This document shows, piece by piece, positions 15,315-41,735 of a DNA stretch of 64,000 nt. A program made the position numbers and the translations under genes. Origin of the DNA: an uncultured virus (IMG/VR IMGVR_UViG_3300042301_004094). Taxonomy: Duplodnaviria > Heunggongvirae > Uroviricota > Caudoviricetes. The notes under the pieces are model-generated. The model had not been told where the DNA came from. It saw nothing but the letters and a program-made list of their open reading frames with translations, and ran no database searches. Position 1 is the stretch's first letter. Every line of letters begins with the position of its first letter. The stretch is taken from positions 62,001-126,000 of the IMG/VR virus record IMGVR_UViG_3300042301_004094; one strand, 5' to 3'.

Positions 15315-16124
15315 TTAACAAGTTCCTTCTCCTCCTAAATAACAACACACACAATCACCTGTCCCAGTAGCTGCTAAGGTACAAGCCTCACTAGCTGAAA
15401 CTGAGCTATAGCATTGGAAATTTGGATAAGCTACTAATGAATAAGCTTTAACATAATAATTAGTATTAGCTTGAACAGTAAATGTATAAGATAATGATTG
15501 AAGAGTTGATGATGTATTGTTAAATGGTTTAAATATTTGTTGATTGCTAATTAAAGTTCCATTAGCAGATACTTCTAAAAAACCAAATCCTGGGGCATCC
15601 CACCCATAACTTGGTCCATCAGGATTTATTAGTCCAAAATTTGCTTGAACGTAAACACTATTTCCTACCCTAACGGCAGCACTCATTTGAGGTGAATATT
15701 GTGGGTTTCCAAAGAACATTCCATCTAAATTATTAGCAGGATCTAATCTAAGCGCGGATCCATTAACAAAACCAAATAAATCCACATTTTGATAAGGATT
15801 TGTTTCTTGACTCATCTCAAAAATAAGAGATGAATTACCACCAGAGTCTGATAACCTTGTAGCATTTAAATAATTGTAATTACAAGTAAAGTTTGGGGAA
15901 GGTCCTGTATATAAAGTATTACCAATTTGCCAACTACTATTAGGGATAAATGACCCACCATCAGGTGAATCCCCAGTATAAACATGAACTCTATTGGCTA
16001 CTTCTTGTCGAGTTAAACAACGATTAGTAGCAGGAATAGATTGACCTGCCTTTAAACCAAGTAAATTGGCAGTTACCATTTCTTGTAACTCGTTTCCTGT
16101 TATTTGAAAATTGCCACTTTTCAT
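15315..16124 (-). CDS. putative fibre-tip / adhesin-like protein with Cys-rich C-terminus
   Basis: Translationally coupled to the upstream collagen fibre; beta-rich; ends GDCVCCYLGGEGTC. Confidence 0.55.
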   Translation of the reverse strand: MKSGNFQITGNELQEMVTANLLGLKAGQSIPATNRCLTRQEVANRVHVYTGDSPDGGSFIPNSSWQIGNTLYTGPSPNFTCNYNYLNATRLSDSGGNSSLIFEMSQETNPYQNVDLFGFVNGSALRLDPANNLDGMFFGNPQYSPQMSAAVRVGNSVYVQANFGLINPDGPSYGWDAPGFGFLEVSANGTLISNQQIFKPFNNTSSTLQSLSYTFTVQANTNYYVKAYSLVAYPNFQCYSSVSASEACTLAATGTGDCVCCYLGGEGTC

Positions 16125-18871
16125 TATTTAGATTCTAATTCTTTTATTCTAGCTTCTAATTGTTGAATTGCTTTTATTAACACACCCACTGTTGATGGAA
16201 CATCCATCGTATTTTTCTTTGGAGTAGATAGATCTGATGGAGTATCTTCAGCTATAAAACCAATGTGAGGTCTATTGTCTTTATCATCTTTATAATTAAA
16301 TGACACTACATTAACTTTATTTAATATATCTAAAGCATCACTTTCATAAGGAATAATATTATATTTTAAATAGCGAGAAGAAATTTGGTAGAATCCTTCA
16401 GCTTCAATAGTATTTCCACTTACTCTAATTTGTGAATTAGTTGTGGCTCCAGTTGAGGTACCATTGCTGATTAATAAAGCATTATTTGTTGCTGGTGAAA
16501 TTGCATTAAACCCAGGGCCTGTTGAACCTTGGTCGCCTTTATCACCTTTGAATCCTTGAAAGCCTCTATCACCTTGATCACCTTTAGTTCCTTTATCACC
16601 TTGGTCACCTTTGTTACCTTTATCACCTTGGTCACCTTTGTCACCTTTTAAACCTTTATCTCCTTGGTCGCCTTTATCGCCTTTGTCGCCTTTGAATCCT
16701 TGAAAACCTCTATCGCCTTGATCACCCTTATCACCCTTATCACCTTTTAAACCTTTATCACCTTGGTCTCCCTTATCACCCTTATCTCCTTTAAATCCTT
16801 GATCTCCCTTGTCGCCTTTATCGCCTTTGAATCCTTGGAAGCCTTGGTCTCCTTTGTCGCCCTTGTCACCTTTTAATCCTTGAAATCCTCTGTCGCCTTG
16901 ATCGCCTTTGTCGCCCTTGTCACCTTTTAATCCTTGTAAGCCTTGTAAGCCTTGAAGACCTTGGAAACCTCTGTCGCCTTGATCGCCTTTGAATCCTTGG
17001 AAACCTCTGTCGCCTTGATCGCCTTTGAATCCTTGGAAACCTCTGTCGCCTTGGTCGCCTTTTAAACCTATATCACCTTTTAATCCTTGGAAACCTATAT
17101 CTCCTTTGAATCCTTGAAATCCTCTATCACCTTGGTCGCCTTTGAATCCTTGAAAGCCTTGATCGCCTTTTGATCCTGTTATTCCAATATCTCCTTGATC
17201 GCCTTTTGATCCTGCAGCTCCTTGAAAACCTTGAACTCCATTAGTTCCATTTGTACCCGCAATACCTTGAGGACCTGTTGCTCCTTGTGAACCTGTATCT
17301 CCTCTATCTCCTGTTCTTGCAAATGTAACAATTATATCTAAATTATTTGTAAATGAACTTACTCCTGATAACCATGTAACAGGTACTCCAAAATAATTTG
17401 TGTTGTGGGTGTGAGTTCCAGTTATTGCAAATAAAGCAAAATTTGTTGTACTACCTTTTTCAGTTACAGTAAAGTGTCCTTTAATTGCTGATGTTGAATC
17501 ATCAACTGTTTGTAAATAGTTGTATACAGAAACACTAGCATCGTCTACTTCACTTATATATAATTCCGTGACTGATGATAATGTTAAGTTATTAAATTTT
17601 AATTTTCCATTTCCAGGAATTGTATTTGAGGTGTTTGTGCTGAATGTGTAATCAAAAGCAGCACCACCAAAATTACCTGTTAAACCTTGAGGACCTTGTG
17701 TCCCTTGAGGACCTTGAACTCCTTGAGCTCCAGTTCCTTGACTACCTTGCCTTCCTTGAGTTCCTTGAGTTCCTTGAGTTCCTGCCTCTCCATTATTTAC
17801 ATATCCTATAGTAACTAATGATCCTTCAACACTATTGTTAAGGTTACCGTAACTTGAAATTAATACTAAATTACATGATCTATATGTTTTTCCATCCCCA
17901 AGTGTAATATCATATGCATTGCTAACAGTGTAAAGACCATAACCCCCAGTCTCATGAACATTTGAGATTCTTAAAATTGTTCCAGCAACAATCCCAGCAG
18001 TCCATGATGTTGCATTTCCAATTTCTTGATTCGTTTCGGTATATGATATTTTTGAAGTTCTAGAAATTCCAATGTTTGTTAATGTTGAGTACTGACTAGA
18101 ATTCGTTGCTAGCTGTCCATCACCATACGTTTCGTATTCATAAACTAGCGCATTGCCAGCAGGATTACCCATTGGGCCTTTAATACCTTGATTACCTTGA
18201 TCACCTTTAGCCCCTTGATCACCTTTAAATCCTATACTTCCTTGTGCACCTACAGTGCCTTGATCACCCTTATCACCTTTATCACCTTTAAATCCTTGAA
18301 TACCTTGAATACCAATAGATCCTTGATCTCCGGTGTCACCTTTAGCTCCTTGAAAACCTTGATCACCTTTATCTCCTTTGTCACCTTTTGTTCCTTGTAC
18401 ACCTATGCTTCCTTGTACACCGATTGGACCTTGAATACCTTGGGCTCCTATATCTCCTTGATCACCTTTTGATCCTATACTTCCTTGCGCACCAATACCA
18501 CCTTGTGCACCAACCCCACCTTGAAATCCTACTGGGCCTTGTACGCCTATAGGACCTTGATGACCTTGGTCGCCTTTTGATCCTTGAACTCCATTTGAAC
18601 CTTGTACACCTTGAGCCCCATGATCACCTTGATCACCTTTAAGACCTTGTATACCAATACTACCTTGTACACCAACAGGACCTTGATTACCTTGAGCTCC
18701 TGTTATTCCTTGAGGTCCTTGTGCACCTACAGTTCCTTGAATACCTTGGGCACCTTGAGCACCATTTGATATTGTAATTTGATTTATACTACCACTTAAT
18801 TCGGTCCAGTTATCGTCCATTTCTTGCCACGTAAGTGGACGACCTAGAGATGATCTTAAAGATAAAGCCAT
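16124..18871 (-). CDS. collagen-like tail fibre with C-terminal intramolecular chaperone (peptidase S74-like)
   Basis: Long G-X-Y runs (GAQ/GDQ/GDK/GFQ). C-terminal SSRYLKYNI...HIGFIAED...LIKAIQQLEARIKELE. Confidence 0.85.
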   Translation of the reverse strand: MALSLRSSLGRPLTWQEMDDNWTELSGSINQITISNGAQGAQGIQGTVGAQGPQGITGAQGNQGPVGVQGSIGIQGLKGDQGDHGAQGVQGSNGVQGSKGDQGHQGPIGVQGPVGFQGGVGAQGGIGAQGSIGSKGDQGDIGAQGIQGPIGVQGSIGVQGTKGDKGDKGDQGFQGAKGDTGDQGSIGIQGIQGFKGDKGDKGDQGTVGAQGSIGFKGDQGAKGDQGNQGIKGPMGNPAGNALVYEYETYGDGQLATNSSQYSTLTNIGISRTSKISYTETNQEIGNATSWTAGIVAGTILRISNVHETGGYGLYTVSNAYDITLGDGKTYRSCNLVLISSYGNLNNSVEGSLVTIGYVNNGEAGTQGTQGTQGRQGSQGTGAQGVQGPQGTQGPQGLTGNFGGAAFDYTFSTNTSNTIPGNGKLKFNNLTLSSVTELYISEVDDASVSVYNYLQTVDDSTSAIKGHFTVTEKGSTTNFALFAITGTHTHNTNYFGVPVTWLSGVSSFTNNLDIIVTFARTGDRGDTGSQGATGPQGIAGTNGTNGVQGFQGAAGSKGDQGDIGITGSKGDQGFQGFKGDQGDRGFQGFKGDIGFQGLKGDIGLKGDQGDRGFQGFKGDQGDRGFQGFKGDQGDRGFQGLQGLQGLQGLKGDKGDKGDQGDRGFQGLKGDKGDKGDQGFQGFKGDKGDKGDQGFKGDKGDKGDQGDKGLKGDKGDKGDQGDRGFQGFKGDKGDKGDQGDKGLKGDKGDQGDKGNKGDQGDKGTKGDQGDRGFQGFKGDKGDQGSTGPGFNAISPATNNALLISNGTSTGATTNSQIRVSGNTIEAEGFYQISSRYLKYNIIPYESDALDILNKVNVVSFNYKDDKDNRPHIGFIAEDTPSDLSTPKKNTMDVPSTVGVLIKAIQQLEARIKELESK

Positions 18872-18902
18872 AATTATTTTTTAATTTGTCACGTATAAAT
18901 AT

Positions 18903-18929
18903 GAAAGGGGATGATTGCTCATCCCCTTC
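18903..18929 (-). terminator. hairpin, probable terminator, abutting the next promoter-like motif
   Basis: aaggggatga-ttgc-tcatcccctt inverted repeat with a weak T tract. Confidence 0.55.
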
Positions 18930-18953
18930 TAAAAATATATATTAATATTTTAA

Positions 18954-19418
18954 TTAACAGTCTTCGTAGCTACCAGTACCGAATACTTCAGCAACTTTTT
19001 CTTTTAATTTAGCATAACCAAATTCAAAGATATTTGCTTCTTCTACTTCAGTAAAATCTGGAACCATTACAGTAACGCTTTCAGAAACTGTAGTTTCTAC
19101 GTTAGTAAAAGTAACACTTCCTGATGCATCTACACTTTGAGAAGGTACATTTACTGTTCTGTAAACAACACTTTCAGATGGAACTCTTAAATCAACATAT
19201 AAGTTATCACCAATTTGTTGGTTACGAGCTATTGTTCCCATTCCTCCAGGACCTGGGTACAAATTAGATGCTGATGTTGCTGATTCTGCGTCTAAAAATA
19301 ATTGAGTTTGAAAATTAGCAAATCCACCTTTCTGAATTTGGTAATTTGTAATACGAAGGTATGCTTCGCTTGTGATACCTAAATCAGTACCAATTTGAGT
19401 TGTAATTCTAATTGCCAT
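18954..19418 (-). CDS. hypothetical tail-fibre-associated protein; start revised to MAIRITTQ at 19418
   Basis: The track start (19484) overlaps the previous gene. The ATG at 19418 lies 24 nt below the conserved upstream motif at 19442-19450. Confidence 0.7.
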   Translation of the reverse strand: MAIRITTQIGTDLGITSEAYLRITNYQIQKGGFANFQTQLFLDAESATSASNLYPGPGGMGTIARNQQIGDNLYVDLRVPSESVVYRTVNVPSQSVDASGSVTFTNVETTVSESVTVMVPDFTEVEEANIFEFGYAKLKEKVAEVFGTGSYEDC

Positions 19419-19449
19419 TGTTGTATAGTTGTTTTTACGTGAATAAATA

Positions 19450-20040
19450 TTAGCGATAATGTTCTCCCCCAAGCCATAATACAAAAGATCTACGAGTTCC
19501 TACAGTTACTGGTGAAACGCGGTGCATCATATATGAAGGAAATATAACTACTGTGCCTCTGCCGCGAGGAGCTGTGATATGTCCTTTACCTCCTTGCCAA
19601 ATATCTAAATCTCCACCTTCATAATCATTAGAATCAGATAGTTGGACCGTAATAGACACTTTACGGAGCGATAATATCCCAGGCCCAATGTCTTGATGCC
19701 AGATGTAATGTCCTCCTTCTGAAGCGTAGTATTCAGTGTATTGTATTTGTTCTGGGGCTGAGTGTAAATCAAAATCCCATAGAGATTTGTTAGCTTCAGC
19801 AGCCATATCCATTAATTTACCGTATAACCAATTCCATTTCATATTTTGTGGAATCCATTTAATAGATGATGAGCGAGCTTCTTTATTATCACCACCAATT
19901 GTAGTAGCTTGAACAAAATCAATTTCAGCGACATCATTGTAAATTTTGTCTAGTTCTTCATTATTAAAACCTTTATCAAAATAATAATAATTTTGAAGAT
20001 CAACGTGTTTTTTAGAAAATAAATAGCCTGTTTGTACCAT
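19450..20040 (-). CDS. 2OG-Fe(II) dioxygenase (prolyl-hydroxylase/PKHD-like)
   Basis: YIWHQD (HxD), RKVSITVQLS...YEGGDL, FPSYMMHRVSPVTVGTRRSFVLW (distal His and 2OG-binding Arg). Confidence 0.9.
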   Translation of the reverse strand: MVQTGYLFSKKHVDLQNYYYFDKGFNNEELDKIYNDVAEIDFVQATTIGGDNKEARSSSIKWIPQNMKWNWLYGKLMDMAAEANKSLWDFDLHSAPEQIQYTEYYASEGGHYIWHQDIGPGILSLRKVSITVQLSDSNDYEGGDLDIWQGGKGHITAPRGRGTVVIFPSYMMHRVSPVTVGTRRSFVLWLGGEHYR

Positions 20041-20049
20041 TTTTATATT

Positions 20050-20622
20050 TTATTCTGTTTCGAAAATATTCATTTTACTTGAGTATGGCTCTTCAGCCCA
20101 TAAATTTATAGCAATTGCTCTTCTAGTTCCTGTTAAAACAGTATCAACTCTATGAGGCACTTTTCCAGCATCGAAAATAATTAAACGATTTGGCCTACAC
20201 AATATAATATCAGGAGAGTTAGATTCACCATCAGTATAAACATTTAATGCACCTCCAGTAAATTCTGATCCTATTGGGTAATAAACACACCCAATTGTAG
20301 GTGTCATTCTATCTCCTGTAGCTTTTCTATATGCAACATCATCATCATAATGCATTTCTAGATAATTTCTAAATCTCCCATTAGGATCTGCTTCTTGAAC
20401 ACCTGTCCAATATTCAAATCCATCAATTGTATATAGTTTATTAAGTGGGCAATTATTTCGCCAAATATATTCTATTAACTTCTTTTTAACAGTGTTTACT
20501 TCATCATTCCACCACCCTTTCCAATAATAATACACACCAGGATCTTGAAAGAAAGTGGTATCATTTGCAATCTCATCTAATAATGTTTGATCTGTTATAA
20601 AATCATCAAATACTGTTATCAT
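20050..20622 (-). CDS. 2OG-Fe(II) dioxygenase
   Basis: MHYDDD (HxD), FTGGAL, PNRLIIFD, HRVDTVLTGTRRAIAINLW. Confidence 0.85.
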   Translation of the reverse strand: MITVFDDFITDQTLLDEIANDTTFFQDPGVYYYWKGWWNDEVNTVKKKLIEYIWRNNCPLNKLYTIDGFEYWTGVQEADPNGRFRNYLEMHYDDDVAYRKATGDRMTPTIGCVYYPIGSEFTGGALNVYTDGESNSPDIILCRPNRLIIFDAGKVPHRVDTVLTGTRRAIAINLWAEEPYSSKMNIFETE

Positions 20623-20629
20623 TTTATTA

Positions 20630-22450
20630 TTATTGTGGGTTATAAATATAATTTACATATCCTTCATCTTCACCAAATCTACTTTCAACCCATAGTGGAT
20701 GTGATGGATTTTCTTTGTAAGCCCAATCTTCTTTTCCTAATTCTTCAAAACGTTTAGCTATTCTTTCATTATAATGGTACATGATCGTTCTTACTCTACG
20801 TTGAATATCTGCACGAGATAAATCATGGGTATTTTGACCTGTATGGTTGTTATAGATAAATTGGATGTAACCAATTTTATTTATTTTACAAATTTTGGTG
20901 TGTAAAAATGTTCTAACTATTAATTCATAATCATCAGCAATCGCTAAATCTCTATTATGTCCACCAACAGCAAAATATGTATCTCTTCTCCAAGCACGAA
21001 CGTGGTTTGGAACACCAACAATATGTCTGATTGTTTTAGGATTAATGTTTTGTGTAATTACAACATCCCATTCAAATCCTCTATATTTTTCTTTTCTATA
21101 TTTACCATACCCAAAAGCAAATCCATCATCATATGTTAATGATTCCCAATTTTCATCTATTTCTACACTATCATTAAAGAAGAAACCAGCATCTGGGTGT
21201 GCTTTTGAAGCATTAATTAGATCCATTGTACAATTGTCTGTTAATAAATCATCATGATCTAATTCTGCTAATAAGAATCCTCTTGTTAAACAAGCGGCTC
21301 TGTATTTTGATTCTCCAATAATCCCTCCTGTTTTTTCTCTAAAATCATATACTTTTACTCTTGGATCTCGTTTAGCAATTTCTTCTGCTATTTTAAGTGT
21401 TTTACCACCATCAGATGAATCGTTAACCATTACCCACTCCCAATCTTGATAAGTTTGTTCAAGCAGTGAACGATAAGTATTCCATAATTTATTTCCAGTA
21501 TTATATATTGGAGTAAAATATGACACTAAATGTTCATTTGATGCTGTTAACATTTGATTCATAGCTACATTGTAAGCTATATCTCCATTTTCAGTATCAT
21601 CTTTTTCAACATTCAACCATCTTTTTCTTACTTCTAAAGGTTGATTAGTTAAATTAGCAAATTCTGAAAAATGTTTTCCAACAGTGATAATTGAATCTGG
21701 TTTGAAAGATGTTAATAATTCTTCTATATTATAATCATTTAAAACATTTAATACATCTAAACTTATGTCTTCATACCCCAAATGTTTAGTGCTTTCTAAT
21801 TTTGATGTACCACCTACATAAAGTACTTTAGGTACTCTTGCTTTTTTCTCTTTTGTTAAGTAATTATAGTAACAAAGTTCTGAATGAATAAAATGAAATT
21901 TATCTGAGAATTGTTTGTATAGATTTTCAATAAACACACCATCTCCACAATATCCACCTTCATATCTACCTTGTGTATATAAACTTTGTTTAATAACATA
22001 TTGAGCTGAGTCTATGTGTCTTAATTTCATATGTTCAGGTCCTACTTTTCTAACATCTAGGCCTGTAAAATCTTTCTTATTAACAAATTGCTCATAAATA
22101 AAAGCATCTTTATCAGGATTAGATTCAATTTCTGATTTGATAGTATCATAAAAATCAGGATGAATAATATTATCATCATCTAATATAACAACATAAACAT
22201 CTTTATGTAATTTATCAATAATATCACTTAATTGAGGATACAAATAATCAGATCCATCTCCTTTTATAAAGTGAAATCTAGTATTTGGGCTTTGTAACTC
22301 ATTCAACATTTCAGCATCAATGTCTTTTAATGTTGTTGTATCAAAGATAATATGCCAAACTACATTTATCGGACTTGGAAATACCGATTTTTTTATTGTC
22401 AATAAGTTTTGCTGACGCGTACAACGCGTTAATATATGTAATGTTACCAT
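20630..22450 (-). CDS. two-domain GT-A (family 2-like) glycosyltransferase
   Basis: N-terminal domain with VILDDDN (DxD). C-terminal domain with FTPIYNT...WEWVMVNDSSD...AELDHDD...ADDYEL. Confidence 0.9.
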   Translation of the reverse strand: MVTLHILTRCTRQQNLLTIKKSVFPSPINVVWHIIFDTTTLKDIDAEMLNELQSPNTRFHFIKGDGSDYLYPQLSDIIDKLHKDVYVVILDDDNIIHPDFYDTIKSEIESNPDKDAFIYEQFVNKKDFTGLDVRKVGPEHMKLRHIDSAQYVIKQSLYTQGRYEGGYCGDGVFIENLYKQFSDKFHFIHSELCYYNYLTKEKKARVPKVLYVGGTSKLESTKHLGYEDISLDVLNVLNDYNIEELLTSFKPDSIITVGKHFSEFANLTNQPLEVRKRWLNVEKDDTENGDIAYNVAMNQMLTASNEHLVSYFTPIYNTGNKLWNTYRSLLEQTYQDWEWVMVNDSSDGGKTLKIAEEIAKRDPRVKVYDFREKTGGIIGESKYRAACLTRGFLLAELDHDDLLTDNCTMDLINASKAHPDAGFFFNDSVEIDENWESLTYDDGFAFGYGKYRKEKYRGFEWDVVITQNINPKTIRHIVGVPNHVRAWRRDTYFAVGGHNRDLAIADDYELIVRTFLHTKICKINKIGYIQFIYNNHTGQNTHDLSRADIQRRVRTIMYHYNERIAKRFEELGKEDWAYKENPSHPLWVESRFGEDEGYVNYIYNPQ

Positions 22451-23379
22451 TCTACGTCAAAGAAAAATAGGTGAAAGAATCTTGCATTTTCGATTGCATC
22501 TCCAAAATAACCTGTTGCTGCGTGGATTGTTTTTGAATCAAACATAACCAATCTATTATAAACGTTTGCAACAGTATCTACTACTTCATATGTTGTTGAG
22601 TCATAAAAATTCATATTATTACTCAACCCTTTAAAGGTATTAAAATAATCATCACCTCTTGTTTCATCAAACCTAGTAGCACCTGTTATTTTGCTTTTAT
22701 ATGTAGCTGTACCTGTTTGAAGTGGGGCATCTGGTGTTAAATACACCATTGCTGCATATGTTTGAGAATCAACGTGATAAACGATTGGATCTTGAGAAGT
22801 ACAATATTGAAAAACACCATTTGCGTATGATTCGTAGTTCCAATTTGTAATCTTTTTACCTAAAATTTCTTCAAATTTTTCTTTAGTACCATTTAAGATA
22901 AATCTGTCGTAACTACGTTTTCCTTTATGATAACCTGATTCTTTAAATTCTAGATTGTTCATAGCATAGTTTCTAACCCAATCAGGATCACTGTAGAAAT
23001 TATCTACTACTACAATACCTTTTTTAGATACAGGGTCAAACCCTGAATGGTAAACTACCCATTTTTCAAATATGTCTATGTTATTTACAACAGAGTTGTC
23101 TTGTAAGATAAGACTAACAGGTTTGTTTAATTCCTGTTTTGTAAGAAGGATTTTAAATCCAATTTCTTCTGTTGGAATTTGAGGATAAAATTCCTTCACA
23201 TCTGGTCTTGATTCAAATCCAGGAGAAATAATTTCCTCACCAATTAGAAATGCTTTAATAGGTTGTATTGGGTGAGACACCCACCCACTAATGGTACAAA
23301 CATCGTTATTAATGATAACTTTATCAATGTACCACAATACACCACCAACGTTGGTTAAATGATTAATATGATCGGCCAT
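22444..23379 (-). CDS. 2OG-Fe(II) dioxygenase-like protein (DUF6445-like C-terminal domain) with an N-terminal beta-sandwich-like domain
   Basis: VVVDNFYSDPD...YHVDS (HxD)...MVYLTPDAP..GT...NVYNRLVMFD..IHAA...R. Confidence 0.75.
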   Translation of the reverse strand: MADHINHLTNVGGVLWYIDKVIINNDVCTISGWVSHPIQPIKAFLIGEEIISPGFESRPDVKEFYPQIPTEEIGFKILLTKQELNKPVSLILQDNSVVNNIDIFEKWVVYHSGFDPVSKKGIVVVDNFYSDPDWVRNYAMNNLEFKESGYHKGKRSYDRFILNGTKEKFEEILGKKITNWNYESYANGVFQYCTSQDPIVYHVDSQTYAAMVYLTPDAPLQTGTATYKSKITGATRFDETRGDDYFNTFKGLSNNMNFYDSTTYEVVDTVANVYNRLVMFDSKTIHAATGYFGDAIENARFFHLFFFDVEW

Positions 23380-23396
23380 AAAAGTAATTATTTTAT

Positions 23397-23428: not shown

Positions 23429-23429
23429 C

Positions 23430-27800: not shown

Positions 27801-27879
27801 TATATTATATCGGGGTTATTCTGATATAAATATTGAGATATACTTGCTCTTAAATGTTAGTTAACAAATAATATTATTT

Positions 27880-28260
27880 TTAACAGATGTATGAACAATA
27901 CCCAACAACACTTCCTGGGGTTCCGTTACTAAAGGAAACAATTTCTGCATTAAGATTAAATGTTCCATTAAGTGGGGTAGAACCAATACTATTACCTCTT
28001 AACCATCTACCTGTAGTTGTTTGGTAAACAGTTATAACCTCATTACAACCACAATACCAATCACCAAATGATTGATATGAATCTAATGCTGTAGCTGTTA
28101 CACCATTCATAGATTCTGATGAATATCCATAAAATTCACTCATAGCATCTGGTGTTGAAAAACCAGCAGCCGCGCTTAGTGTTCTAAGACTGTTTGAACT
28201 AGATCCTAATTCGGCTTTGATTTGTGATATGCTTATTGCTCCTGATGATTGTAATGGCAT
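27880..28260 (-). CDS. small tail-fibre-associated protein
   Basis: MPLQSSGAISISQIKAELG...DAMSEFYG N-terminus, of a type commonly found after phage fibre genes. Cys-containing C-terminus. Confidence 0.7.
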   Translation of the reverse strand: MPLQSSGAISISQIKAELGSSSNSLRTLSAAAGFSTPDAMSEFYGYSSESMNGVTATALDSYQSFGDWYCGCNEVITVYQTTTGRWLRGNSIGSTPLNGTFNLNAEIVSFSNGTPGSVVGYCSYIC

Positions 28261-33700: not shown

Positions 33701-35704
33701 GTCGCCTTGATCACCTTTATCTCCCTTATCACCTTTAAACCCTTGAAAGCCTCTGTCACCTTGGTCGCCTTTATCGCCTTTATCACCTTTAAAGCCTTGA
33801 AAGCCTCTATCACCTTGGTCGCCTTTAAAGCCTTGAAAACCTCTGTCGCCTTGATCACCTTTAAAACCTCTGTCGCCTTGGTCGCCTTTATCTCCCTTAT
33901 CGCCTTTTAGTCCTTGAAAACCTTGGAAACCTCTATCACCTTGAGAACCTTGACGTCCTTGATCACCTTGGAAGCCTCTAGCACCTTGGTCACCTTGGTT
34001 ACCTTGATCTCCTTTAAAACCTTGTTGGCCTGTAGAGCCTTGAGCGCCTGTTGAACCTTGAATCCCTTGTACAGACATATCTGTAGTAAAGGACCAAACC
34101 CCACCGCTTCTTAAATATAATTTTCCATAATCTGGATCTGATTGAGATAAACTACCACCAACCAAACCAAATTGTCCATCGGGACATGTATTATCTGCTA
34201 ATAATGCAGCTACTGAGTTATATGTTTGGTAAATTATGAATCCTTGTCCTGTAATACCTTGGTATCCTTGATCGCCCTTAGCGCCTTGAACACCAGTAGC
34301 ACCTTGTGTACCTACTGTACCTTGTATTCCTTGATCACCTTGGAAACCTCTATCGCCTTGGTCACCCTTATCGCCTTTAATACCTTGAGGACCTATAGGA
34401 CCTTGGTTGCCTTGATCACCCTTAGCTCCTTGAAATCCTTGGTCGCCTTGGTCGCCCTTAGTTCCTTGGATACCTTGGTCGCCTTGGAAACCTTGGATAC
34501 CTTGAAATCCTTGATCTCCTTTAGCACCTTGTAAACCTGTTGGTCCTTGGTTACCTTGAAATCCAGTTTCACCTTGAGGACCTACACTTCCTTGAGCTCC
34601 AACAGAACCTTGAGATCCAGTAGGGCCTTGAGCGCCAATAGCACCTTGATTACCTGTTGCTCCTTGAGCACCAACAGAACCTTGTGCACCTGTTGCACCT
34701 TGATTACCTTGAGAACCAATTTCTCCTAAGTAATTATTTATTTCTATAGTATCGCCTGCAGCAGCACCGTTAGCTAAAACAACGGTTGTACCATTTGATG
34801 CTGTATAATCTACTCCTACTGTTTGTTTAACACCGTTCCAGAATACATCTACTAACCCAATATTATAACCACCAGGCACTGTAAATGTTGTTTGATTTAA
34901 TGTTGTTGTAAATACAGTTACATTTCTTGCTGATGCACTTATTGCTCCTTGAGCTCCAGTTTCACCTTGACTACCTTGAAATCCTATAGGACCTTGAAAA
35001 CCTTGAGCACCTGTTACTCCTTGATCTCCTTTTACTCCTTGAAAACCTTGAAAGCCTCTATCACCTTGAGCACCTTGTGCTCCGTCAGCTCCAACATATC
35101 CTGCTTGGCCTTGGAAACCTTGGAAACCTTGATAACCCCTCATACCACCAACAGTAGCAACTGCAGTACCTGCTACAGGAACTGCAAAAGTAATTGTTAT
35201 TGTATTAGAGTTTGTTGCTACAGTAGGAGCAACTAAAATTTGATCATCAACCCCATATAATTCTACTACAGGATATTTTTCATTTAAATTATGTGTAAAC
35301 ACCCATGTTGTTGAGGCAGCAAATGTTTGTTTGGCTGTTCTTCCATCTCCAGAACTAGCAGCTGTATTATCAATCCATACAGCTCCGTTTTCAGTTATTT
35401 GTAGAACTTGTCCTACAGATCCTGTACTATTAGTATAGTCACGAACTGTATTTGGTAGTTTTAAACTACCACTTAATTCTAAAGCTCCTGTGATGTTGTG
35501 AGATGAACCTGAGATTGAAAGTGATCCTGTGTTTTGGGCGTTTGTTGTAAGTATTTCTTCAATACTTTCGCCTGCGGATCCACTTTTCTCAAAATAAATT
35601 TTACCGTCGTAGGTATTCATTGCCAACTCACCTAACTCCAACTGCTCTGTAGTTGGTTTGTTGCCAGTGGTTGCACTCCTACGTAACTTAACAATTTGCG
35701 CCAT
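30761..35704 (-). CDS. long collagen-like tail fibre with C-terminal S74 chaperone
   Basis: N-terminal KLRRS...[19 protein letters not shown] runs, YSDKRKKENI...GVIAQEV...[16 protein letters not shown]. Confidence 0.9.
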   Translation of the reverse strand: MAQIVKLRRSATTGNKPTTEQLELGELAMNTYDGKIYFEKSGSAGESIEEILTTNAQNTGSLSISGSSHNITGALELSGSLKLPNTVRDYTNSTGSVGQVLQITENGAVWIDNTAASSGDGRTAKQTFAASTTWVFTHNLNEKYPVVELYGVDDQILVAPTVATNSNTITITFAVPVAGTAVATVGGMRGYQGFQGFQGQAGYVGADGAQGAQGDRGFQGFQGVKGDQGVTGAQGFQGPIGFQGSQGETGAQGAISASARNVTVFTTTLNQTTFTVPGGYNIGLVDVFWNGVKQTVGVDYTASNGTTVVLANGAAAGDTIEINNYLGEIGSQGNQGATGAQGSVGAQGATGNQGAIGAQGPTGSQGSVGAQGSVGPQGETGFQGNQGPTGLQGAKGDQGFQGIQGFQGDQGIQGTKGDQGDQGFQGAKGDQGNQGPIGPQGIKGDKGDQGDRGFQGDQGIQGTVGTQGATGVQGAKGDQGYQGITGQGFIIYQTYNSVAALLADNTCPDGQFGLVGGSLSQSDPDYGKLYLRSGGVWSFTTDMSVQGIQGSTGAQGSTGQQGFKGDQGNQGDQGARGFQGDQGRQGSQGDRGFQGFQGLKGDKGDKGDQGDRGFKGDQGDRGFQGFKGDQGDRGFQGFKGDKGDKGDQGDRGFQGFKGDKGDKGDQGDRGFQGFKGDKGDQGDRGFQGFQGIQGAVGTGAQGAQGTAGSLDAVARAGDTMTGQLIVGAGGIGLQRTQTNNGIWFNSGTDANHILWNDYYGGPGSRTANPSSFDGIKWNTYRGIQIRGGLSGAFNCIIVTNSSDDLNDHTVSLYASNVLRLQTTTSGVNIFGNLISTGTVFATNGGVDGTFADAFVARFNSNNAEQNAIQTAVSSAAGGSGFRFQVSNGGGSSGRTTTADFLRNNTLVYTNFTASTDGIFGNNRTGNDAGATVLNILGSSSSSTSSQLNLTQVWNGVQYPVILRNTYNSTGGAASSVFTLSTTQWNGSTAFTTERFRIDGNSGISTFSGGVTISTSASPGLNIIKDASADNRYIRLSNTQAGSKSWDLINQTNANSNRFVIYNATDDISALQIETSGRTTIRDGLKISSVESTLYEQNGALAYYSASNAVYLNGAGPNGWLRLNAAGSENDRNSINIFGSGAGSPDQMNFRTGNGTRLTITNNQANFNGNVYAGTTINWNSGIGALSYGTGFITMETNSANAIQFKTNGSTAQTINTNQTVLFASNIGVNNTFGLLFNGLSDSNWKIYRTNGTPDFARAIITGPSLNINAHYSSEGFAIGANGGNSYYEILGNSNGTSATHYFRGTAQVTGALSSASLTTGAINGNRTSVGVLNFSCGFGSYTTDGLFNAQSVYSYVTTPSGVDRIRFGYNDYGGGQYYGAIGFQGPTNFSIGHGYSSNGNFFRIGTGYRDDGIVLSANNNVLIPAKLSIGNFDSNDGGLNIRGYGVADGSTNYGVILARGTKIAWTDTGNASTGEYIYSQAGSPYSVTIHSGGYNALACPNTSHVYINHEAGTCSIGSTSFSTSYKLYVTGQIYATSDITAYSDKRKKENITTIDQALNKVLGLRGVFYNRIDDDSKQRNLGVIAQEVLEILPEAVSYANDTDEYGVKYGNMAGLFIEAIKEQQTQIESQKTEIEELKDLVKQLINR

Positions 35705-35774
35705 ATCTATGGTCTGTTTTTAATTTAGTATGTACTAATATGTCTTATGATCTATATAGATCGTGTATAAATAT

Positions 35775-38700
35775 TTACTTAGAAGCTAACTGCGATTCTA
35801 GGTATGCTATTTTTGCATTTAATTCTTTGATTGCCTCAATAAATAAACCAGCAAAGTTACCATAAGCAACACCATATTCATCTACATCTGCAGCATATGT
35901 AACAACTTCAGGTAATACTTCATTTATTTCTTGTGCAATAACCCCTGTTTGTCTTCCTTTTTCAATATCATCTATTCTGGTGTAGTAAACTCCTCTTAAT
36001 TGTAATACTTTATTTAAGGCGTTATCTATAGTAGCAATATCTGTTTTTTTACGGACATCTGAATACGCCACAACATCTCCTTCAGCATATAAAGAACCAC
36101 CAATGTAAGCTCTGTAAGAAGAGGATGTTGATGAGGTTGATATACCAGTACAGTTATTTCCTAAATGGTGATACCAATACCATCTTCCATTATCTTCTCT
36201 ATATACTCCCCCATTACCTCCACTATCATACATCATTCCATTTACACGGCTGTATGAACACCATATACCATCATATCCGTTCTTGTTACCATTAATTCTA
36301 AACTGAGTATAAGTTGAACCGTCGTTTGGATAAAAATGTCCTCCATAATTGTTAGGCCAATACAAACCGTATCCACCATTAAATTGCATCCATGTATTTG
36401 TCTGGTAGTAAGATGTTCCTGATTTATTTGGAGCATCCATATTTCCTGTATGGTAAACAGCATTACCTGTAGATATTCCTCCACTAGTACCATTAACATA
36501 AAGCATACCTCTAATCTTAGTATTACCAGATGTATCTACTATTAATCTACCATGATGAGCATCATTACCAGACCAACCGTCACCAACACCATAGTGACCA
36601 TTACCATCTTGTTGGTCACTATAACCTATACTAAAAATACCTGGGTTTAAGTTAGCTATACCCATTGTCCAAAGTCTATAACCACCACTTATGTTACCAC
36701 TCATTACAATATAAGCTCCATGAGTGCTATTATTCCCAGCATAAGCATTAAGATGTAATCCAGGATAATACTCTGCATTAATAACTAATGCTTTTCTTGC
36801 ATTATCATTAATAAGTCTAGATGTATTAGTAGAACCTACAAGTAAAGCTGCTCCTGAAACTGCATTATTTACTATAAGTCTACTTAAATTAGAAGTATCA
36901 TTAGGATCTAAATAATATCCTGTATCAGCATCGTCATAATATATTGTAGCTCTATGAGAAGAAGTACTACGCATAGAACCATTAGCATTAAACTCATGTC
37001 CTGCTCCATTACCTGGTGCATTACCTATGTATGTAAACCCATAGATCCAGTTAGTTCCACCTGCTGTACTAATACCATTAGGAAAAAATGCAGAGTTTGC
37101 AGTACCCCATGGATTACCATTACTTACATATCCTGAAGGAGCATTAACACTTGAAGCAGTAACATTACTAAATCTAATTGATGGAGTAACCGAGTCTGCA
37201 ACTGTATCAAATGATGTTACAAATGTTATATTCCAGTTGTTTGAAACAGTAGCAACATCGCTTCTTACATATCCCCCTTGAAAATCCATAACAGAAACTT
37301 GAGGATAAGACCAAGAGGTACCAGTCTCACCAATCCACACACAATCATAAGTACCATCGTTACCAAATCTCACTGTTTGAGGTATAGCACTAACACCCCC
37401 CATAAAATGAGCTGCTCTATGATAAGCACCCGCAGCATATGAATAGTTACCTATTGTATATTCTGAAACAGCATCGTTAGTATAATTATAGATTCTAACC
37501 TTCATAGACCACATACAGTCATTTCCTCTAAAAGGTAATCTAATTTTAATAGCGGCTGTAATTCCCCCTCCATTAAAACCATTAGATGCACCTTGTGGAG
37601 CAAATGTTCTTGATAATGTAGCTTGTGAAGAACTTGATACAGAATTTGTTCCAAAAGCACCTGTTTGTAATCGTATTGTTCCAGCTAAATTTGCAGAAGT
37701 GCCACCAGCATTGGGATCTAAGAAATAAGCTGTATCATTTGAGTCGTAGAAGATAGGAGCACGCATAGAAGCATTTGCTTGCCACACACCATTATTTAAT
37801 ATCCACCCTGCAGTATATGCTGCTCCAAAATCAGTACCACCAACACCTCTTCTAAACACCCAACCCCTACCATCTGTATCCATAGTAAGATAAGTATTGT
37901 ACCCATCTCCAAATCCTGTTGGGTTGGAAAAATATCCTCCATTTGCTTTAAATCCTATTGCAGATGTAGTTGTGTTACCACCACCCCAGAAAAATATTTG
38001 ATTATCAGATCCTGTACTATTATTATCACCTCTAATAGCAACACCATACATTCTACTTATACCTCTACCTTGGAAGTAATATCCATTATCATAGTAGTCA
38101 TAGAAGATATTTGCATACATACCTGCAGATGTAATAATATTATTACCCGTAGTATTACCTCTTCCTGTAACACTATTAAGTGTATCTGTTTCTGTATATG
38201 AAGTTATATAACCAGGACCATTAGTTAACTGATTTAAATTAGTAAGATTACCACTATGCCACATTGTTACCCAACCACCCCATGTACCAGCATCTGCTGA
38301 TCTCATGTATAATCTATTTCCTCCAGTATCAAAAAATAATTGTTGGTGGTAATTACCAGGGTGAGTATCTATTTGTAATAAGGCACCACCATTATGTACA
38401 ACAGTTGGTCTATTACTCCAATCGCCAGTTGAACCTCTATATAAACCTGTACCATTAAATGCATTTACATTAACACCAGACTGAGCTGCTTGATACATTG
38501 GAGTATAACCAAGAGCAGTTGTTACATTTCCTGATGTTATACCTGTAATATAACCCGGGCCGTTAGTTAATTGATTCAGGTTGGTAAGATTACCACTATG
38601 CCAGTTTGTACTACCAGCAATTGATATATTATGTTCAAAATACCAACCATTGTAGGGGGAGTTATGAGCAAATACTCTACTAGTAAGACCTAAGTCATTA

Positions 38701-41700
38701 CGTACTAAAGCAAGATGCCAAGGAGAACCATTAGCAGTTGTTAAAGTAAGAGGTTGACTACCACCTCCATTAATAGTTATGGGACTAGATGTTGTAGCTC
38801 CTCTACCTGTAACTGTAGCTAATGTATCAGATTCTCCTGTTATATAGCCAGGACCGTTTGTTAGCTGATTTAAGTTGGTTAAATTACTTGTATTCCATAC
38901 AGTAGAATAACTAGATAAAGTTCCTATTCTTACTGCTCCACCACCTCCCCAAGCTCCAGGTCTTAAGTAAATATTTCCTGCTGCTTCAAAAGCCATATGG
39001 TCTCCTACTGAGCCATCTCCATCGTTTTGTGTTCCTAATCTTAAAACAGAAGTTTCACCTCCTGCTGTACCATATGTTGAGTTATTATTATCAAAAGTTA
39101 CGTAACCATAATCTGTTCCTCCTGTATCACTTCCTCCAAATGCTTCTTCTCTACCAAAGAATATAGTTCGACCTGCATCTAAACCTATATCAGCTTGTAC
39201 TCTTAAATTTCCGGTAAATGTACCTCCACCAAATGGATTACCTGTTGCTCCTTGAGGTCCAGTATTACCTTGAGGTCCTGCTACTGTTGAAGCAGCACCA
39301 GTATTACCTTGAGCGCCAGTATTACCTTGAGCACCTGTAGCCCCTTGAGCACCTGTTGCACCTTGAACACCGTTTGTACCTGCTGTTCCTTGTAAACCAG
39401 TAGGACCTATATTTCCTTGATCTCCTTTAGTACCTTGTAAACCAGTAGGACCTATTGGACCCTGGGTTCCTTGATGACCTTGTTGACCTGTAAATCCTTG
39501 ATCGCCTTTATCACCTTTTGCTCCTTGAACACCAACAGCCCCCTGAAGACCAGTTGGTCCTGTAGCACCTTGTAAACCTGTAGGACCTGTTGGGCCTTGG
39601 ATACCTTGAAGACCAGTTGCACCAGTTGCTCCAATAGTTCCTTGTAAACCAGTAGGGCCTATAGGACCTTGAGCACCAATTGAGCCTTGAGTACCCGTTG
39701 TTCCTTGAAGACCAGTTGGACCTTGACTTCCTGTAGTTCCTTGCAATCCAGTAGGGCCTGTTGCTCCTTGAAGACCAATTGGACCTATAGATCCAGTAGT
39801 TCCTTGTAAACCAGTAGGACCTATTTCACCTTGAAATCCAAATCCTTGGTAGCCTTGGAAGCCCATGTCACCCTGAGAGCCTTGAAATCCTTTATCACCT
39901 GTTGGGCCTTGAAAGCCTTGGTATCCGTCTCCTTGATAACCTTGGAATCCCATATCACCCTGAGAGCCTTGGAAACCTTGATCCCCATCAGCACCTTGAG
40001 AGCCTTGATATCCAAAACCTTGATAACCTTGGAAGCCCATATCGCCTTGAGGACCTTGAAAACCTTGATCACCTATAGAACCTTGGGATCCAGTAGCACC
40101 CTGTGCTCCATCAGCACCAATATAGCCATCTGCTCCTTGAAAACCTTGATCGCCTTTAGCACCTTGAGGACCAACTACTGTTGAATTTGCTCCTTGAAAA
40201 CCTTGGTCGCCTTTTATTCCTGTAGTCCCTTGATTACCTTGTGGACCTTGAGATCCAATTACAGCACCTACACTAGTTAATACATAAGAGTAACTTGAAG
40301 AACCTTCTGTATACCAAGTTATATCATGAGAGCCACTAGATTCTTCTACAACATAGATTTTAACAATCATTCTGTTTGTTGGATCTATTACTGTAGATGG
40401 TAAAACTATATCAGCAAGTGCTTCAACAGTTGTAGATGAATTTATCCAACCTATATCAACAATACCAGAAGTAATTATAGGACCTATTGGGGTGCCTGTT
40501 GAGGTTGCTAATTGTATTGTAACATAAGCATCAATATTATTTCCTTGAGAATCTTTTAAAAAATGTAAATGAAATCTTTGAACACCTGCTGGGATTATAG
40601 CAAATCCTAATTCAGGAGTTAAAAATTGACTTACTAAAATGGGAGTTGTTCCTGTTGTAGTAACTGTTACTGTTTGTTCTACAGTTGCTGTTGGGTCTTT
40701 TGATAATACCTTATAAGGAGATACATCAGAAGATTGAGATTGGTTAAAGTAATATACTTGTCCTGCACTTATACCCCCACTACCTTGATAACCTTGATTA
40801 CCTTGGTCGCCTTTAATTCCTTGAATGCCTTGGAAACCTTGGTCGCCTTTAATTCCTTGAATGCCTTGGAAACCTTGAATGCCTTGAAAACCTTGGTCGC
40901 CTTTAACCCCCTGTGCACCTATTTCACCTAAATAATTATCTATTTCTATTGTATCACCAATACTAGCAGGGTTTGTTAATACTACTGTTGTACCATTTGA
41001 TGCTGTATAATCTACTCCTTCAGTTTGCTTAACACCATTCCAAAACACATCAACCATAGTTAATGTATAACCACCAGGTACTGTAAATGTTGTTTGCCCA
41101 GCAGTTGCAGTAAATATAGTTATATCTCTAGCAGATGAACCAACTGCCCCTTGAGCACCTGTTGCACCTTGACTACCTTGAAATCCTAAAGAACCTTGAA
41201 AACCTTGAGCACCATCTGCTCCAAGAAATCCATTAGATCCTTGGAAACCTTGGAATCCCATAACCCCTTGAGCACCAATCGTACCATTAAAGCCTTGGTC
41301 ACCTTTGTCGCCTTTATCTCCTTGAAAACCTTGGTCGCCTTTTGTTCCTTGAATACCTTGAGGCCCAGCTATACCTTGAAAACCTTGATCGCCTTTTATA
41401 CCTTGAAAGCCTTGGTTGCCTTGAAATCCTTGAACACCAACTGGTCCTTGATTACCTTGAGGACCTTCTATACCTTGTGGACCTGGAGTACCTATTGATC
41501 CTTGTGGACCTAATGGACCAGGGCCTCCTGAAGGGCCTGTTGCTCCTTGGGCACCTTGGGCTCCTGTTCCTCCTGTTTCACCAAGAGTTACAATAGTTTC
41601 AACACCGTTAACATTCTTTTTAAGATAAACCTTACCATCGTAAGTATTCATAGCTAACTCACCTAACTGTAAGTCAGCAATTGTAGGAATCTTTCCAGGC

Positions 41701-41735
41701 GTAGCTGTTCTACGCAGAGTAATAAGACGAGACAT
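35775..41735 (-). CDS. longest collagen-like tail fibre (1986 aa) with C-terminal S74 chaperone
   Basis: N-terminal LRRT...[19 protein letters not shown] runs, [10 protein letters not shown]...GVIAQEI...[15 protein letters not shown]. Confidence 0.9.

Follow-up and report, generated by a model that had tools for sequence, protein, structure and literature searches.

A predicted collagen-directed oxygenase-glycosyltransferase cassette in the tail fibre array of an uncultured T4-like myovirus

What do three oxygenases and a glycosyltransferase do in the midst of the collagen-like tail fibre genes of a phage? This question is raised by an uncultured member of the Caudoviricetes (IMG/VR record IMGVR_UViG_3300042301_004094; 133,024 bases, estimated to be 78% complete), of which a stretch of 64,000 nucleotides, bases 62001-126000, was analyzed and is hereafter called the window. 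Within the window, four genes form a compact cassette (19450-23379) that encodes the oxygenases Ox1, Ox2 and Ox3 and the glycosyltransferase GT. The pair of Ox3 and GT, the conserved core of the cassette, is linked to collagen-like genes in divergent phages, four bacterial lineages and a cultured cyanophage, and a fused form of it seems to exist in a giant virus. Because of this linkage, the cassette is best read as a soluble cytoplasmic system that would modify the collagen-like tail fibres of the phage post-translationally, with a probability of roughly 0.6.

The window is the structural region of a T4-like myovirus, as indicated by PHROG and Pfam matches for the terminase, portal, prohead protease, major head protein, PhoH, sheath, tube, baseplate hub and a baseplate-wedge-like protein; the major head protein shares 57.5% identity with its counterpart in Flavobacterium phage vB_FspM_immuto and 49% with the one in Microcystis phage Mel-JY01. 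All long open reading frames (ORFs) lie on the minus strand across the window, including the genes of the fibre array and of the cassette. Five fibre proteins match the Pfam family Collagen (PF01391, E-values from 8e-15 to 3e-78), namely F1 (16124-18871, 915 amino acids (aa), 170 Gly-X-Y triplets), F2 (23430-27800, 1456 aa, 107 triplets), located directly upstream of Ox3, F3 (28290-30704, 804 aa, 32 triplets), F4 (30761-35704, 1647 aa, 128 triplets) and F5 (35775-41735, 1986 aa, 177 triplets). Except for F3, these proteins end in a Peptidase_S74 domain, an intramolecular chaperone of fibres, and the array is flanked by the baseplate-wedge-like and sheath genes, so that F1, F2, F4 and F5 qualify as tail fibres. 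The 614 Gly-X-Y triplets of F1-F5, counted by script in runs of at least five and forming runs of up to 89, have a strongly biased composition: Pro occurs 53 times in X and 4 times in Y, Lys 92 times in Y and never in X, and the other abundant residues are Gln (319 in Y), Thr (68 in Y) and Asp (140 in X). In F1, whose collagen domain spans residues ~521-787, Lys accounts for 29% of the Y positions; the densest tracts are in F1 (nucleotides 16532-16891, 6-7 Lys per 30 aa) and F4 (33635-33904, 3-5 Lys per 30 aa). The original prediction for this locus, made from the same sequence, thus had the architecture right: the gene calls and the Pfam matches agree on a four-gene cassette enclosed by collagen-like fibre genes, and the placement of Pro in X and of Lys in Y, as well as the positions of the Lys-dense tracts, are borne out by the counts.

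The three oxygenases indeed carry the motif of the 2-oxoglutarate (2OG)-Fe(II) dioxygenase superfamily that had been ascribed to them, HxD and a distal His, the iron-binding triad of such enzymes, followed 10-14 residues further downstream by an Arg, the basic residue to which the C5 carboxylate of 2OG binds in this superfamily: H115-x-D117, H173 and R183/184 in Ox1 (19450-20040, 196 aa), H91-x-D93, H157 and R167/168 in Ox2 (20050-20622, 190 aa), and H202-x-D204, H286 and R300 in Ox3 (22444-23379, 311 aa), where all these residues are invariant in 28 homologues. Ox1 and Ox2, which are lineage-specific accessories, match PF13640 (50.0 bits, E 5.9e-13, and 29.5 bits, E 1.4e-6, respectively; cut-off 27), and Ox3 matches DUF6445 (PF20043; 48.9 bits, E 1e-12; cut-off 24). 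Ox1 is also similar to phrog_61 (E 2.6e-33) and, among the sequences in the PDB, to PKHD-type hydroxylases such as PiuC (E 5e-6); no sequence relative of Ox2 or Ox3 was found in the PDB, and the Ox3 profile yielded nothing significant against the PDB sequences. The AlphaFold model of Ox3 (AF2, built with the 28 homologues; predicted local distance difference test score, pLDDT, 88.5) consists of an N-terminal beta-sandwich (residues ~1-110) and a double-stranded beta-helix (115-311). The top Foldseek match of this model is PHD2/EGLN1 (E 7e-5), and in a VIA-align scan of 48,161 chains, it resembles OGFOD1 (Z 14.2), Trichoplax PHD (14.0), PHD2 (13.5), Pseudomonas PPHD (13.3), Dictyostelium PHD (6t8m, 13.0), PiuC (12.8), C-P4H-II (12.4), the PBCV-1 collagen prolyl hydroxylase vCPH (12.3), the mimivirus lysyl hydroxylase (6ax6, 11.3), LH3 (8zgc, 10.5) and AspH (10.4). 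Ten of the top 14 matches are prolyl hydroxylases (Z 12.2-14.2), a resemblance and not an assignment, and many 2OG oxygenases match Ox3 at Z > 10. The lysyl hydroxylases score below the prolyl hydroxylases, and this ranking of folds alone does not decide membership in the lysyl hydroxylase family.

The glycosyltransferase (20630-22450, 606 aa) had been described as a double enzyme, and the two halves of this claim fare differently. The C-terminal domain is a GT2 family, GT-A fold glycosyltransferase by its Pfam match (PF00535 at residues 312-440; 72.6 bits, cut-off 23.3; E 4.9e-20), and the presence of an N-terminal GT-A domain rests on a model alignment and on a conserved motif. The AF2 model of GT (pLDDT 83.2) aligns to both domains of the chondroitin polymerase K4CP (Foldseek E 3.7e-22; VIA-align Z 24.0 for model residues 1-591, with 430 aligned residues and a root-mean-square deviation (rmsd) of 19.6), and both the D398-H-D-D401 motif of the C-domain and the DDD motif at residues 91-93 of the N-domain are invariant in 23 homologues. 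The N-domain (~1-200) has no Pfam match, and among the fold matches, only K4CP spans it; the others, PmHS2 (Z 22.9, rmsd 3.0 over 222 residues), WrtF, SpsA, TarP/TarS and RmlT, as well as the polypeptide GalNAc-transferases (Z ~18), cover only residues ~304-596. The Pfam scan of GT returned PF00535 alone, without a match to GT25, the family of collagen glycosyltransferases. None of the cassette proteins has a membrane segment (maximum 19-residue hydropathy < 1.0), and the cassette encodes neither a flippase nor a lipid-carrier enzyme. The predicted complex of GT and Ox3 scored 0.00, which gives no verdict. In one relative (L006:4636-6349), two ORFs, of 126 aa and 434 aa, take the place of a single GT, the result of either a frameshift or an assembly error.

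How tightly does this cassette follow collagen in other phages? Full-length relatives of the GT are common in metagenomes; identities among the best 120 matches, all with uninformative names, range from 55 to 94%, and the longest of their contigs reaches 235 kb. In IMG/VR, a GT relative is encoded in 237 of the 269 pattern-matched stretches. For the analysis of gene neighborhoods, 80 GT loci were fetched, and dereplication at 95% GT identity left 48 of 81 loci, 25 of these with at least 5 kb of upstream sequence. Within 10-kb flanks, 20 of the 25 loci contain a collagen ORF (at least 20 triplets), and in 15 of these 25, such an ORF lies no more than 1.5 kb from the Ox3-GT block. Ox3 is present in 29 of the 38 loci with at least 2 kb upstream, and the recurrent core in the gene maps is Ox3 followed by GT; Ox1 is frequent but mobile, and Ox2 is rare, its place being taken by a small GT2 in L005, L006 and L013-15. 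All seven GT-bearing genomes that are at least 74% complete (G000, G001, G002, G004, G023, G024 and G028) have collagen genes. The co-occurrence with collagen fibres, which had been proposed as a check, holds for most of the 25 loci and for these genomes, and fails for the remaining five loci.

Around the core pair, the relatives encode additional GT2, GT17 and GT1/GT9 (TibC-like) enzymes, methyltransferases, ATP-grasp proteins, more 2OG oxygenases, and sulfotransferases together with adenosine 5'-phosphosulfate (APS) kinase. The islands with APS kinase, sulfotransferases, TibC-like GT1/GT9 and GT17 (L029:5104-5532, L025:680-1540, L082:1988-4081, L018:9172-9990) hint at sulfated or otherwise elaborate decorations. 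A protein of ~290-350 aa adjoins Ox3 or GT in relatives, although not in the window (L067:1721-2773; 21 ORFs across the loci, in a cluster that includes L005, L006, L014, L024, L025, L029 and L035); it was considered as an Ox3-like protein and rejected (hhalign probability 0.7%, no Pfam match). The 205-aa oxygenase of the L038 group, likewise, shows no detectable orthology with Ox2.

The distribution of the cassette among relatives defined by their capsids complements the neighborhood counts. The search with the capsid protein gave at least 601 matches, of which 80 loci were fetched, and the comparison used the 17 whose contigs measure 40 kb or more; five doubtful records were rescanned at E 1e-9. 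GT and Ox3 are missing in 16 of the 17, the sole bearer being the L004 contig, and 12 of these 16 have no collagen candidate either, including a complete genome of 162 kb. Of the other four, two fragments (G008 and G010) have strong collagen genes and two are doubtful; in G019, none of the 30 weak collagen candidates reached 1e-9. Of five phages that are more remotely related, three (Mel-JY01, LR756501 and S-CRM01) encode collagen as well as a PF13640 protein, and a distant GT relative was found only in LR756501 and S-CRM01; neither collagen nor PF13640 nor GT was detected in Flavobacterium phage immuto or LR756508. The search of these five records with the DUF6445 hidden Markov model is uninformative because it gave no match in the control genomes either. 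The GT sequences are 55-69% identical in lineages whose capsid proteins are only 57-58%, 29% or 25% identical, and a capsid search of 25 records contained 19 GT-bearing ones, with capsid identities of 99%, 90%, 57-58%, 29% and 25%, and six without GT, with identities of 58-67%. It follows that the module is patchy and tracks collagen fibres rather than the capsid phylogeny.

Homologues of Ox3 were detected also in prokaryotic genomes (23 loci), and in nine of these loci, which all rank among the top 11 matches, collagen repeats lie no more than 6.5 kb away: six in Thiothrix or Thiolinea, one in Vampirovibrionaceae, one in Vicinamibacterales and one on a 7.7-kb contig of a metagenome-assembled genome (MAG). 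The six Thiothrix/Thiolinea genomes share a gene order, DUF6445, GT2 (442 aa), a 165-aa ORF and a collagen-like protein, that is located between dnaE and rnhB/lpxB, and the collagen-like protein of L171 consists of 524 aa with 135 triplets; in the cultured Thiothrix eikelboomii ATCC 49788, too, a collagen-like protein adjoins the DUF6445 gene and the gene for the 442-aa GT2. In the other five of these assemblies (L168-L173, all but L171), contigs break inside the collagen repeat, and the resulting truncated collagen genes are missed by standard ORF calling. In the Vicinamibacterales MAG, the DUF6445 ORF ends at the start of an 805-aa collagen gene that is followed by a GT2-methyltransferase; in the Vampirovibrionaceae MAG, the order is collagen gene, DUF6445, methyltransferase and two GT2 genes. 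On the 7.7-kb contig (L175, a Methylococcus MAG), 52 triplets of collagen repeats are located ~6 kb upstream of the DUF6445 gene, with genes close by that encode a glycine-rich protein, a 2OG-FeII_Oxy_5 oxygenase and an FkbM methyltransferase-radical SAM protein. The GT2 enzymes of Thiolinea and Vicinamibacterales are 36% identical to each other and 31-32% identical to the C-domain of the phage GT (E 3e-30 and 3e-27), with the motifs ELDHDDLL and PNHVR..W.R in common, beyond the generic GT2 signature; no homology was seen between the small accessory ORFs that accompany the pair in phages and those in bacteria. Given that strong collagen loci number only about two or three in the 3.7-7.9 Mb of a collagen-linked bacterial genome, chance adjacency is estimated at ~1% per lineage. 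The less similar DUF6445 homologues adjoin Asn-synthase-like and transglutaminase-like genes (L180:8599-10808 and L187:8516-10770), a lasso-peptide-like set, and these neighborhoods suggest that the family includes putative peptide-tailoring hydroxylases, as would suit enzymes whose substrates are peptides or proteins.

The family reaches further, into cyanophages and, apparently, a giant virus. The Ox3 catalytic domain has homologues in 33 phage records, exclusively of cyanophages and marine viruses, and in the cultured Synechococcus phage DSL-LC02, the DUF6445 homologue (44.9% identity) comes after genes for the collagen-like protein WJZ48255, a mannosyltransferase and an FkbM methyltransferase and before that for a 1787-aa tail fibre. 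The oxygenases of this type in the cyanophages NC_015287, NC_031935 and NC_008296 (phrog_1644) are annotated as 'minor coat protein' and the homologue in DSL-LC02 as 'FkbM family methyltransferase', names that look like annotation carry-over. The Ox3 model is also matched by A0A3G5AE29, a Satyrvirus protein of 585 aa with the annotation 'Glycosyltransferase 2-like domain-containing protein' (Foldseek against BFVD; E 1.5e-15, 31% identity over 223 columns), which suggests a fusion of the oxygenase with a GT2 domain, as far as the comparison of models goes.

Which residue would be the target? In the animal and mimivirus systems, on which the original prediction was modeled, Lys in the Y position is hydroxylated and then glycosylated. 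Among 45 distinct collagen ORFs with at least 40 triplets from the phage module loci, the frequency of Lys in Y varies from 0 to 32%, that of Pro in X from 0 to 52%, that of Thr in Y from 2 to 65% and that of Gln in Y from 21 to 88%; in 14 of the 45, Lys in Y rounds to 0%, so that the X-Lys-Gly substrate is not a constant feature of these proteins. In the linked bacterial and DSL-LC02 collagens, there are 0-4 Lys and 0-1 Pro: in Thiolinea, X is Ala, Ser or Thr and Y is Gln, Thr or Asn, with no Pro and four repeat Lys, all in Y; in Vicinamibacterales (L178), X is Ala or Ser and Y is Gln or Thr, with one Pro and no repeat Lys; and in DSL-LC02, X is Thr or Ala and Y is Thr or Gln, again with one Pro and no Lys. 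Given this scarcity, neither Lys nor Pro can be the conserved target, and in F1-F5, too, the substrate of prolyl 4-hydroxylases, Pro in Y, accounts for only 4 of the 614 triplets. The data argue against either residue, and no classical hydroxylation target is common to all linked collagens. Only Gln and Thr are present in all of these, and Gln was considered as the target because it makes up at least 21% of Y in each of the 45; however, collagens from G010 and S-CRM01, where the module is missing, are just as rich in Gln, so that no residue can be assigned. An association of Ox2 with Lys-rich fibres was also examined and found to be too weak, with three lineages that have both, none with Ox2 alone and five that are Lys-rich without Ox2.

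The layout of the genes suggests an operon led by a fibre gene. F2 and Ox3 are 50 nt apart, the start of GT overlaps the stop of Ox3 (-7 nt), the next two gaps are 7 nt and 9 nt, and Ox1 overlaps the following ORF (18954-19484), behind which lies a terminator-like hairpin of 11 pairs (18904-18929, read from 18929 to 18904). A promoter-like motif, TATTTATA on the coding strand (27825-27832), is found 25 nt upstream of F2. This 8-base motif has 19 matches in total, 16 of them in the coding (minus) orientation, with copies at 7175, 9876, 10923, 14620, 18894, 20641, 27825, 28264, 30724, 35766, 41796, 48194, 57955, 61454 and 63395, of which those at 18894, 20641 (before Ox2), 27825, 28264, 30724, 35766 and 41796 are near the cassette and fibre genes; no copy lies between F2 and Ox3. 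As read from the coordinates, 13 of the 16 coding-orientation copies are 12-62 nt upstream of a minus-strand start codon, and the genes so preceded are F1-F5, Ox2, the terminase and other structural genes. The total of 19 is not above that in shuffled sequences (mean 14.6), and it is the placement, not the number, that is striking and suggests a candidate late promoter; the motif is the T4 TATAAATA box read as its reverse complement. From this arrangement, F2-Ox3-GT-Ox2-Ox1-ORF is taken to be a single late unit that probably begins with F2 and may have a second, internal start ahead of Ox2.

These observations combine into a tentative scheme in which Ox3 would oxidize a side chain in or beside the Gly-X-Y repeats of unfolded or assembling fibre chains and GT would then add sugars to the fibre, be it two kinds one after the other or a chain built of an alternating disaccharide. 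Ox1 and Ox2 would be lineage-specific add-ons that diversify the decoration, so that the version in this phage would amount to a core DUF6445 hydroxylase and GT2, expanded by a putative second GT-A domain and two oxygenases; hydroxylation of Lys by Ox1 or Ox2 is possible in this phage. The phage could benefit through stabilized helices where Pro is scarce, through protection from proteases or through adhesion to the host. Comparative genomics gives good support to the view that the core pair belongs to a collagen-directed system of modification; that collagen is the substrate, in which order the enzymes act and what the phage gains are inferences. Of the proposed parallel with the processing of animal and giant-virus collagens, the modification of collagen fibres by the phage gains from the linkage of the core pair, and the analogy of hydroxylation of Lys in Y followed by a GT-A transfer is not supported. 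In a broader and more speculative version, DUF6445 and its partner GT2 would represent a collagen maturation chemistry shared across domains of life that acts on a residue other than Pro and Lys and yields proteoglycan-like phage fibres and bacterial surface collagens; taken jointly with a target such as Gln, Thr, Asn, Ser or Ala in the G-X-Q/T/N repeats of Pro-free helices, and with a two-domain GT that builds a disaccharide or a glycosaminoglycan-like chain, sulfated or methylated in relatives, this version is rather unlikely to be right in all its parts.

Several findings weigh against collagen as the substrate. Five of the 25 dereplicated loci (L030, L031, L056, L069 and L078) have no collagen ORF within 10 kb, and in phages of 234-236 kb, five unrelated genes (ClpP, ThyA and others) split Ox3 from GT and the collagen genes are ~27 kb away. 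Shared ancestry inflates the adjacency counts in phages, and the counts of presence and absence likewise ignore shared descent. The collagen fibres of G008, G010, Mel-JY01 and S-CRM01 exist without the module, which is therefore not needed to make a fibre. The homologue in S-SSM7 (30% identity) is part of a cluster of glycosyltransferase and sugar metabolism genes far from the fibres, and that in S-SCSM2R is fused into a 621-aa ORF near nrdAB. Furthermore, the best structural matches of GT are enzymes of polysaccharide and teichoic acid synthesis (K4CP, PmHS2, WrtF and TarP), with the protein O-GalNAc transferases scoring lower, and glycosyltransferases in such fibre islands have been published as modifiers of the host O-antigen (PMC7029224). 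The last two points feed the idea that GT and the oxygenases remodel the host surface, that is, alter the O-antigen, capsule or cell wall glycans, for instance, to block superinfection, and that the fibre region is simply a hypervariable island. Such is the published account of glycosyltransferases in the tail fibre region of pelagimyophages and cyanomyophages (PMC7029224), and the lipopolysaccharide (LPS)-type genes in the islands of relatives (GT9-like enzymes and sulfotransferases) and the sugar gene cluster of S-SSM7 fit it as well. What it leaves unexplained is why the chromosomes of bacteria from three phyla have the same oxygenase-GT2 pair adjoining collagen-like genes and why collagen-free relatives lack this pair; moreover, the cassette lacks a membrane segment, a flippase and a lipid-carrier enzyme and appears, from its layout, to be expressed as part of a late fibre operon. 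Remodeling of the host surface is, accordingly, distinctly unlikely.

The model taken over from animals and mimivirus, in which one or more of the oxygenases are collagen lysyl hydroxylases that act on Lys in Y and GT glycosylates the hydroxylysine as in mimivirus L230, draws on the strict confinement of the 92 repeat Lys to Y, which recurs in the four Lys of the Thiolinea collagen, and on a set of covariations: Ox2 accompanies Lys-rich fibres in close relatives (L002/3, L004/7 and L042, 16-30% Lys in Y), a small GT2 replaces Ox2 where Lys in Y drops to 1-7% (L005, L006 and L013-15), and the four sampled collagen lineages without the module have 0-1%. Against these stand the 14 linked collagens with 0% Lys in Y and the Lys-free repeats of L178 and DSL-LC02, the Lys-rich L038, L053, L068, L074 and L083 that do without Ox2, the greater similarity of Ox3 to prolyl hydroxylases (Z 12.2-14.2) than to the mimivirus lysyl hydroxylase or LH3, and the lack of both a GT25 match and any lysyl hydroxylase family among the Pfam matches of the cassette oxygenases, which together make the model quite improbable. 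The enzymes could also act together away from the repeats, on other virion proteins such as the capsid, the sheath or non-collagen domains of the fibres, or the oxygenases could tailor the glycan itself. There is a precedent in mycobacteriophages, whose own glycosyltransferases glycosylate capsid and tail proteins, the sugar-acting 2OG oxygenases AviO1, EvdO1/O2 and HygX match Ox3 at Z 10-11.6, and the module is sometimes distant from the collagen genes; but the collagen repeat is the only feature common to its neighbors in phages, Thiotrichaceae, Vicinamibacterales, Vampirovibrionaceae and DSL-LC02, and the top fold matches of Ox3 are protein prolyl hydroxylases, so that this alternative is unlikely. 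A role in nucleic acid or small-molecule metabolism, such as hypermodification of DNA bases or an auxiliary metabolic 2OG function, would accord with the spread of PF13640 oxygenases in cyanophages away from fibre genes and with the description of a pelagimyophage 2OGFeDO protein as a nucleic acid modifier (PMC7029224). The location of the cassette in the late structural region, the ranking of the TET and AlkB-type folds below the prolyl hydroxylases for Ox3 and the persistence of the collagen linkage across the domains of life render it highly improbable. Modification of the collagen-like fibres thus is the preferred reading.

Several other features of the locus and the window deserve mention. 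The ORF between Ox1 and F1 (18954-19484) is conserved, with homologues of 152-176 aa in relatives, and has no Pfam or PHROG match and no named function; its true product is probably a 154-aa protein that starts from the ATG at 19418, and in L074, its homologue lies between a collagen fibre gene and Ox3. The terminator-like hairpin separates it from the promoter-like motif of F1. Another ORF without a named function (27880-28260, 126 aa) is kept between fibre genes. Two ORFs, one encoding a 133-aa Cys/Tyr-rich protein (14897-15298) and the other a 269-aa protein (15315-16124), always follow an F1-type collagen fibre gene in relatives, the former being extended to 470 aa in L004 and L007; neither has a family match, and they may encode a fibre tip or an assembly factor. 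Farther away, a PhoH-like gene (48211-48903) directly adjoins the major head protein gene within the structural module, and a 1193-aa protein (661-4242) with a C-terminal endolysin/amidase-like domain (residues ~1043-1178) is probably a tail-associated lysin. The G+C content in the window is ~30-43%, and no tRNA genes were found in it. A blastn search of phage records with the cassette produced a single match of 144 bp, in two megaphage records.

The enzymatic maturation of collagen, with hydroxylation first and glycosylation after it, counts as a trait of animals for which a giant virus provides one further example; the collagens of phages and prokaryotes are commonly portrayed as unmodified or as glycosylated only now and then (PMC8968730). 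The literature on this pair of reactions that was retrieved comprises the mimivirus case, reviews and genome descriptions only. No published oxygenase-GT pair for collagen from a phage or a bacterium was found in a search of articles, DUF6445 was not found by name and the substrate of PiuC was not found either; the articles that match phage, collagen, lysyl hydroxylase and glycosyltransferase describe no phage system in their titles or the opening lines of their abstracts. Comparison of sequences thus points to a previously undescribed way of decorating microbial collagens, through a core pair that travels with collagen-like genes. If this is correct, a dedicated pair of this kind, present in aquatic myoviruses that are abundant and in bacteria of several phyla, would alter the view of collagen maturation as an animal trait, assign a function to DUF6445, and allow the glycosyltransferases of phage tail fibre islands to be read otherwise than as 'LPS modification' enzymes; it would also matter for host recognition, for the stability of virions and for how recombinant bacterial collagens are engineered.

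The closest known counterpart is mimivirus L230, a bifunctional lysyl hydroxylase/glycosyltransferase that acts on viral collagen (Luther et al. 2011, cited in PMC8968730). In both cases, collagen-like proteins and the two enzyme activities, 2OG-Fe(II) oxygenase and glycosyltransferase, are encoded by one and the same virus, and a giant virus seems to possess a fused oxygenase-GT2 form of the present family. Unlike L230, however, the cassette combines a DUF6445 oxygenase of a prolyl-hydroxylase-like fold (Z 11.3 to 6ax6, compared with 14.2 to OGFOD1) with a GT2 of probably two GT-A domains, the host is a bacterium, the enzymes are cytoplasmic and Lys is not conserved in the linked collagens. 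The animal enzymes LH3 and ColGalT1, too, combine a hydroxylase with two sugar-transfer activities on Gly-X-Y chains before the triple helix forms (PMC8968730), but no family is shared with the cassette, where the only matches are PF00535, PF13640 and PF20043 and the fold of LH3 is matched at Z 10.5, and they work in the endoplasmic reticulum rather than in the bacterial cytoplasm. Most prokaryotic collagens are unmodified, the exceptions being the exosporium collagen-like proteins BclA of Bacillus and BclA1 of Clostridioides difficile, which are O-glycosylated in the repeats, and the prolyl 4-hydroxylase of Bacillus anthracis, which can hydroxylate collagen peptides (PMC8968730). These cases include neither a described oxygenase-GT pair beside a collagen gene nor a phage.

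The fibre islands of pelagimyophages and cyanomyophages resemble the present locus in that fibre genes, some with collagen repeats, are interleaved with glycosyltransferases and 'LPS-like' genes in aquatic T4-like myoviruses (PMC7029224), and differ in interpretation: the part of PMC7029224 devoted to these islands reads the glycosyltransferases as host O-chain modifiers and links them to neither collagen repeats nor oxygenases, whereas the evidence here points to the fibres. With respect to the enzyme itself, K4CP and PmHS2 have the architecture predicted for GT, two GT-A domains in one soluble chain, and K4CP aligns over both domains of GT, but the identity is only 14-19%, no capsule export genes are present here and the acceptor is probably a protein. 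In the Skp1 pathway of Dictyostelium and Toxoplasma, a cytoplasmic PHD-type hydroxylase makes the acceptor and soluble GT-A enzymes, including a two-domain glycosyltransferase, extend it; the difference is that the target in this pathway is a single Pro of Skp1, as opposed to a collagen repeat, and that several linked collagens lack Pro.

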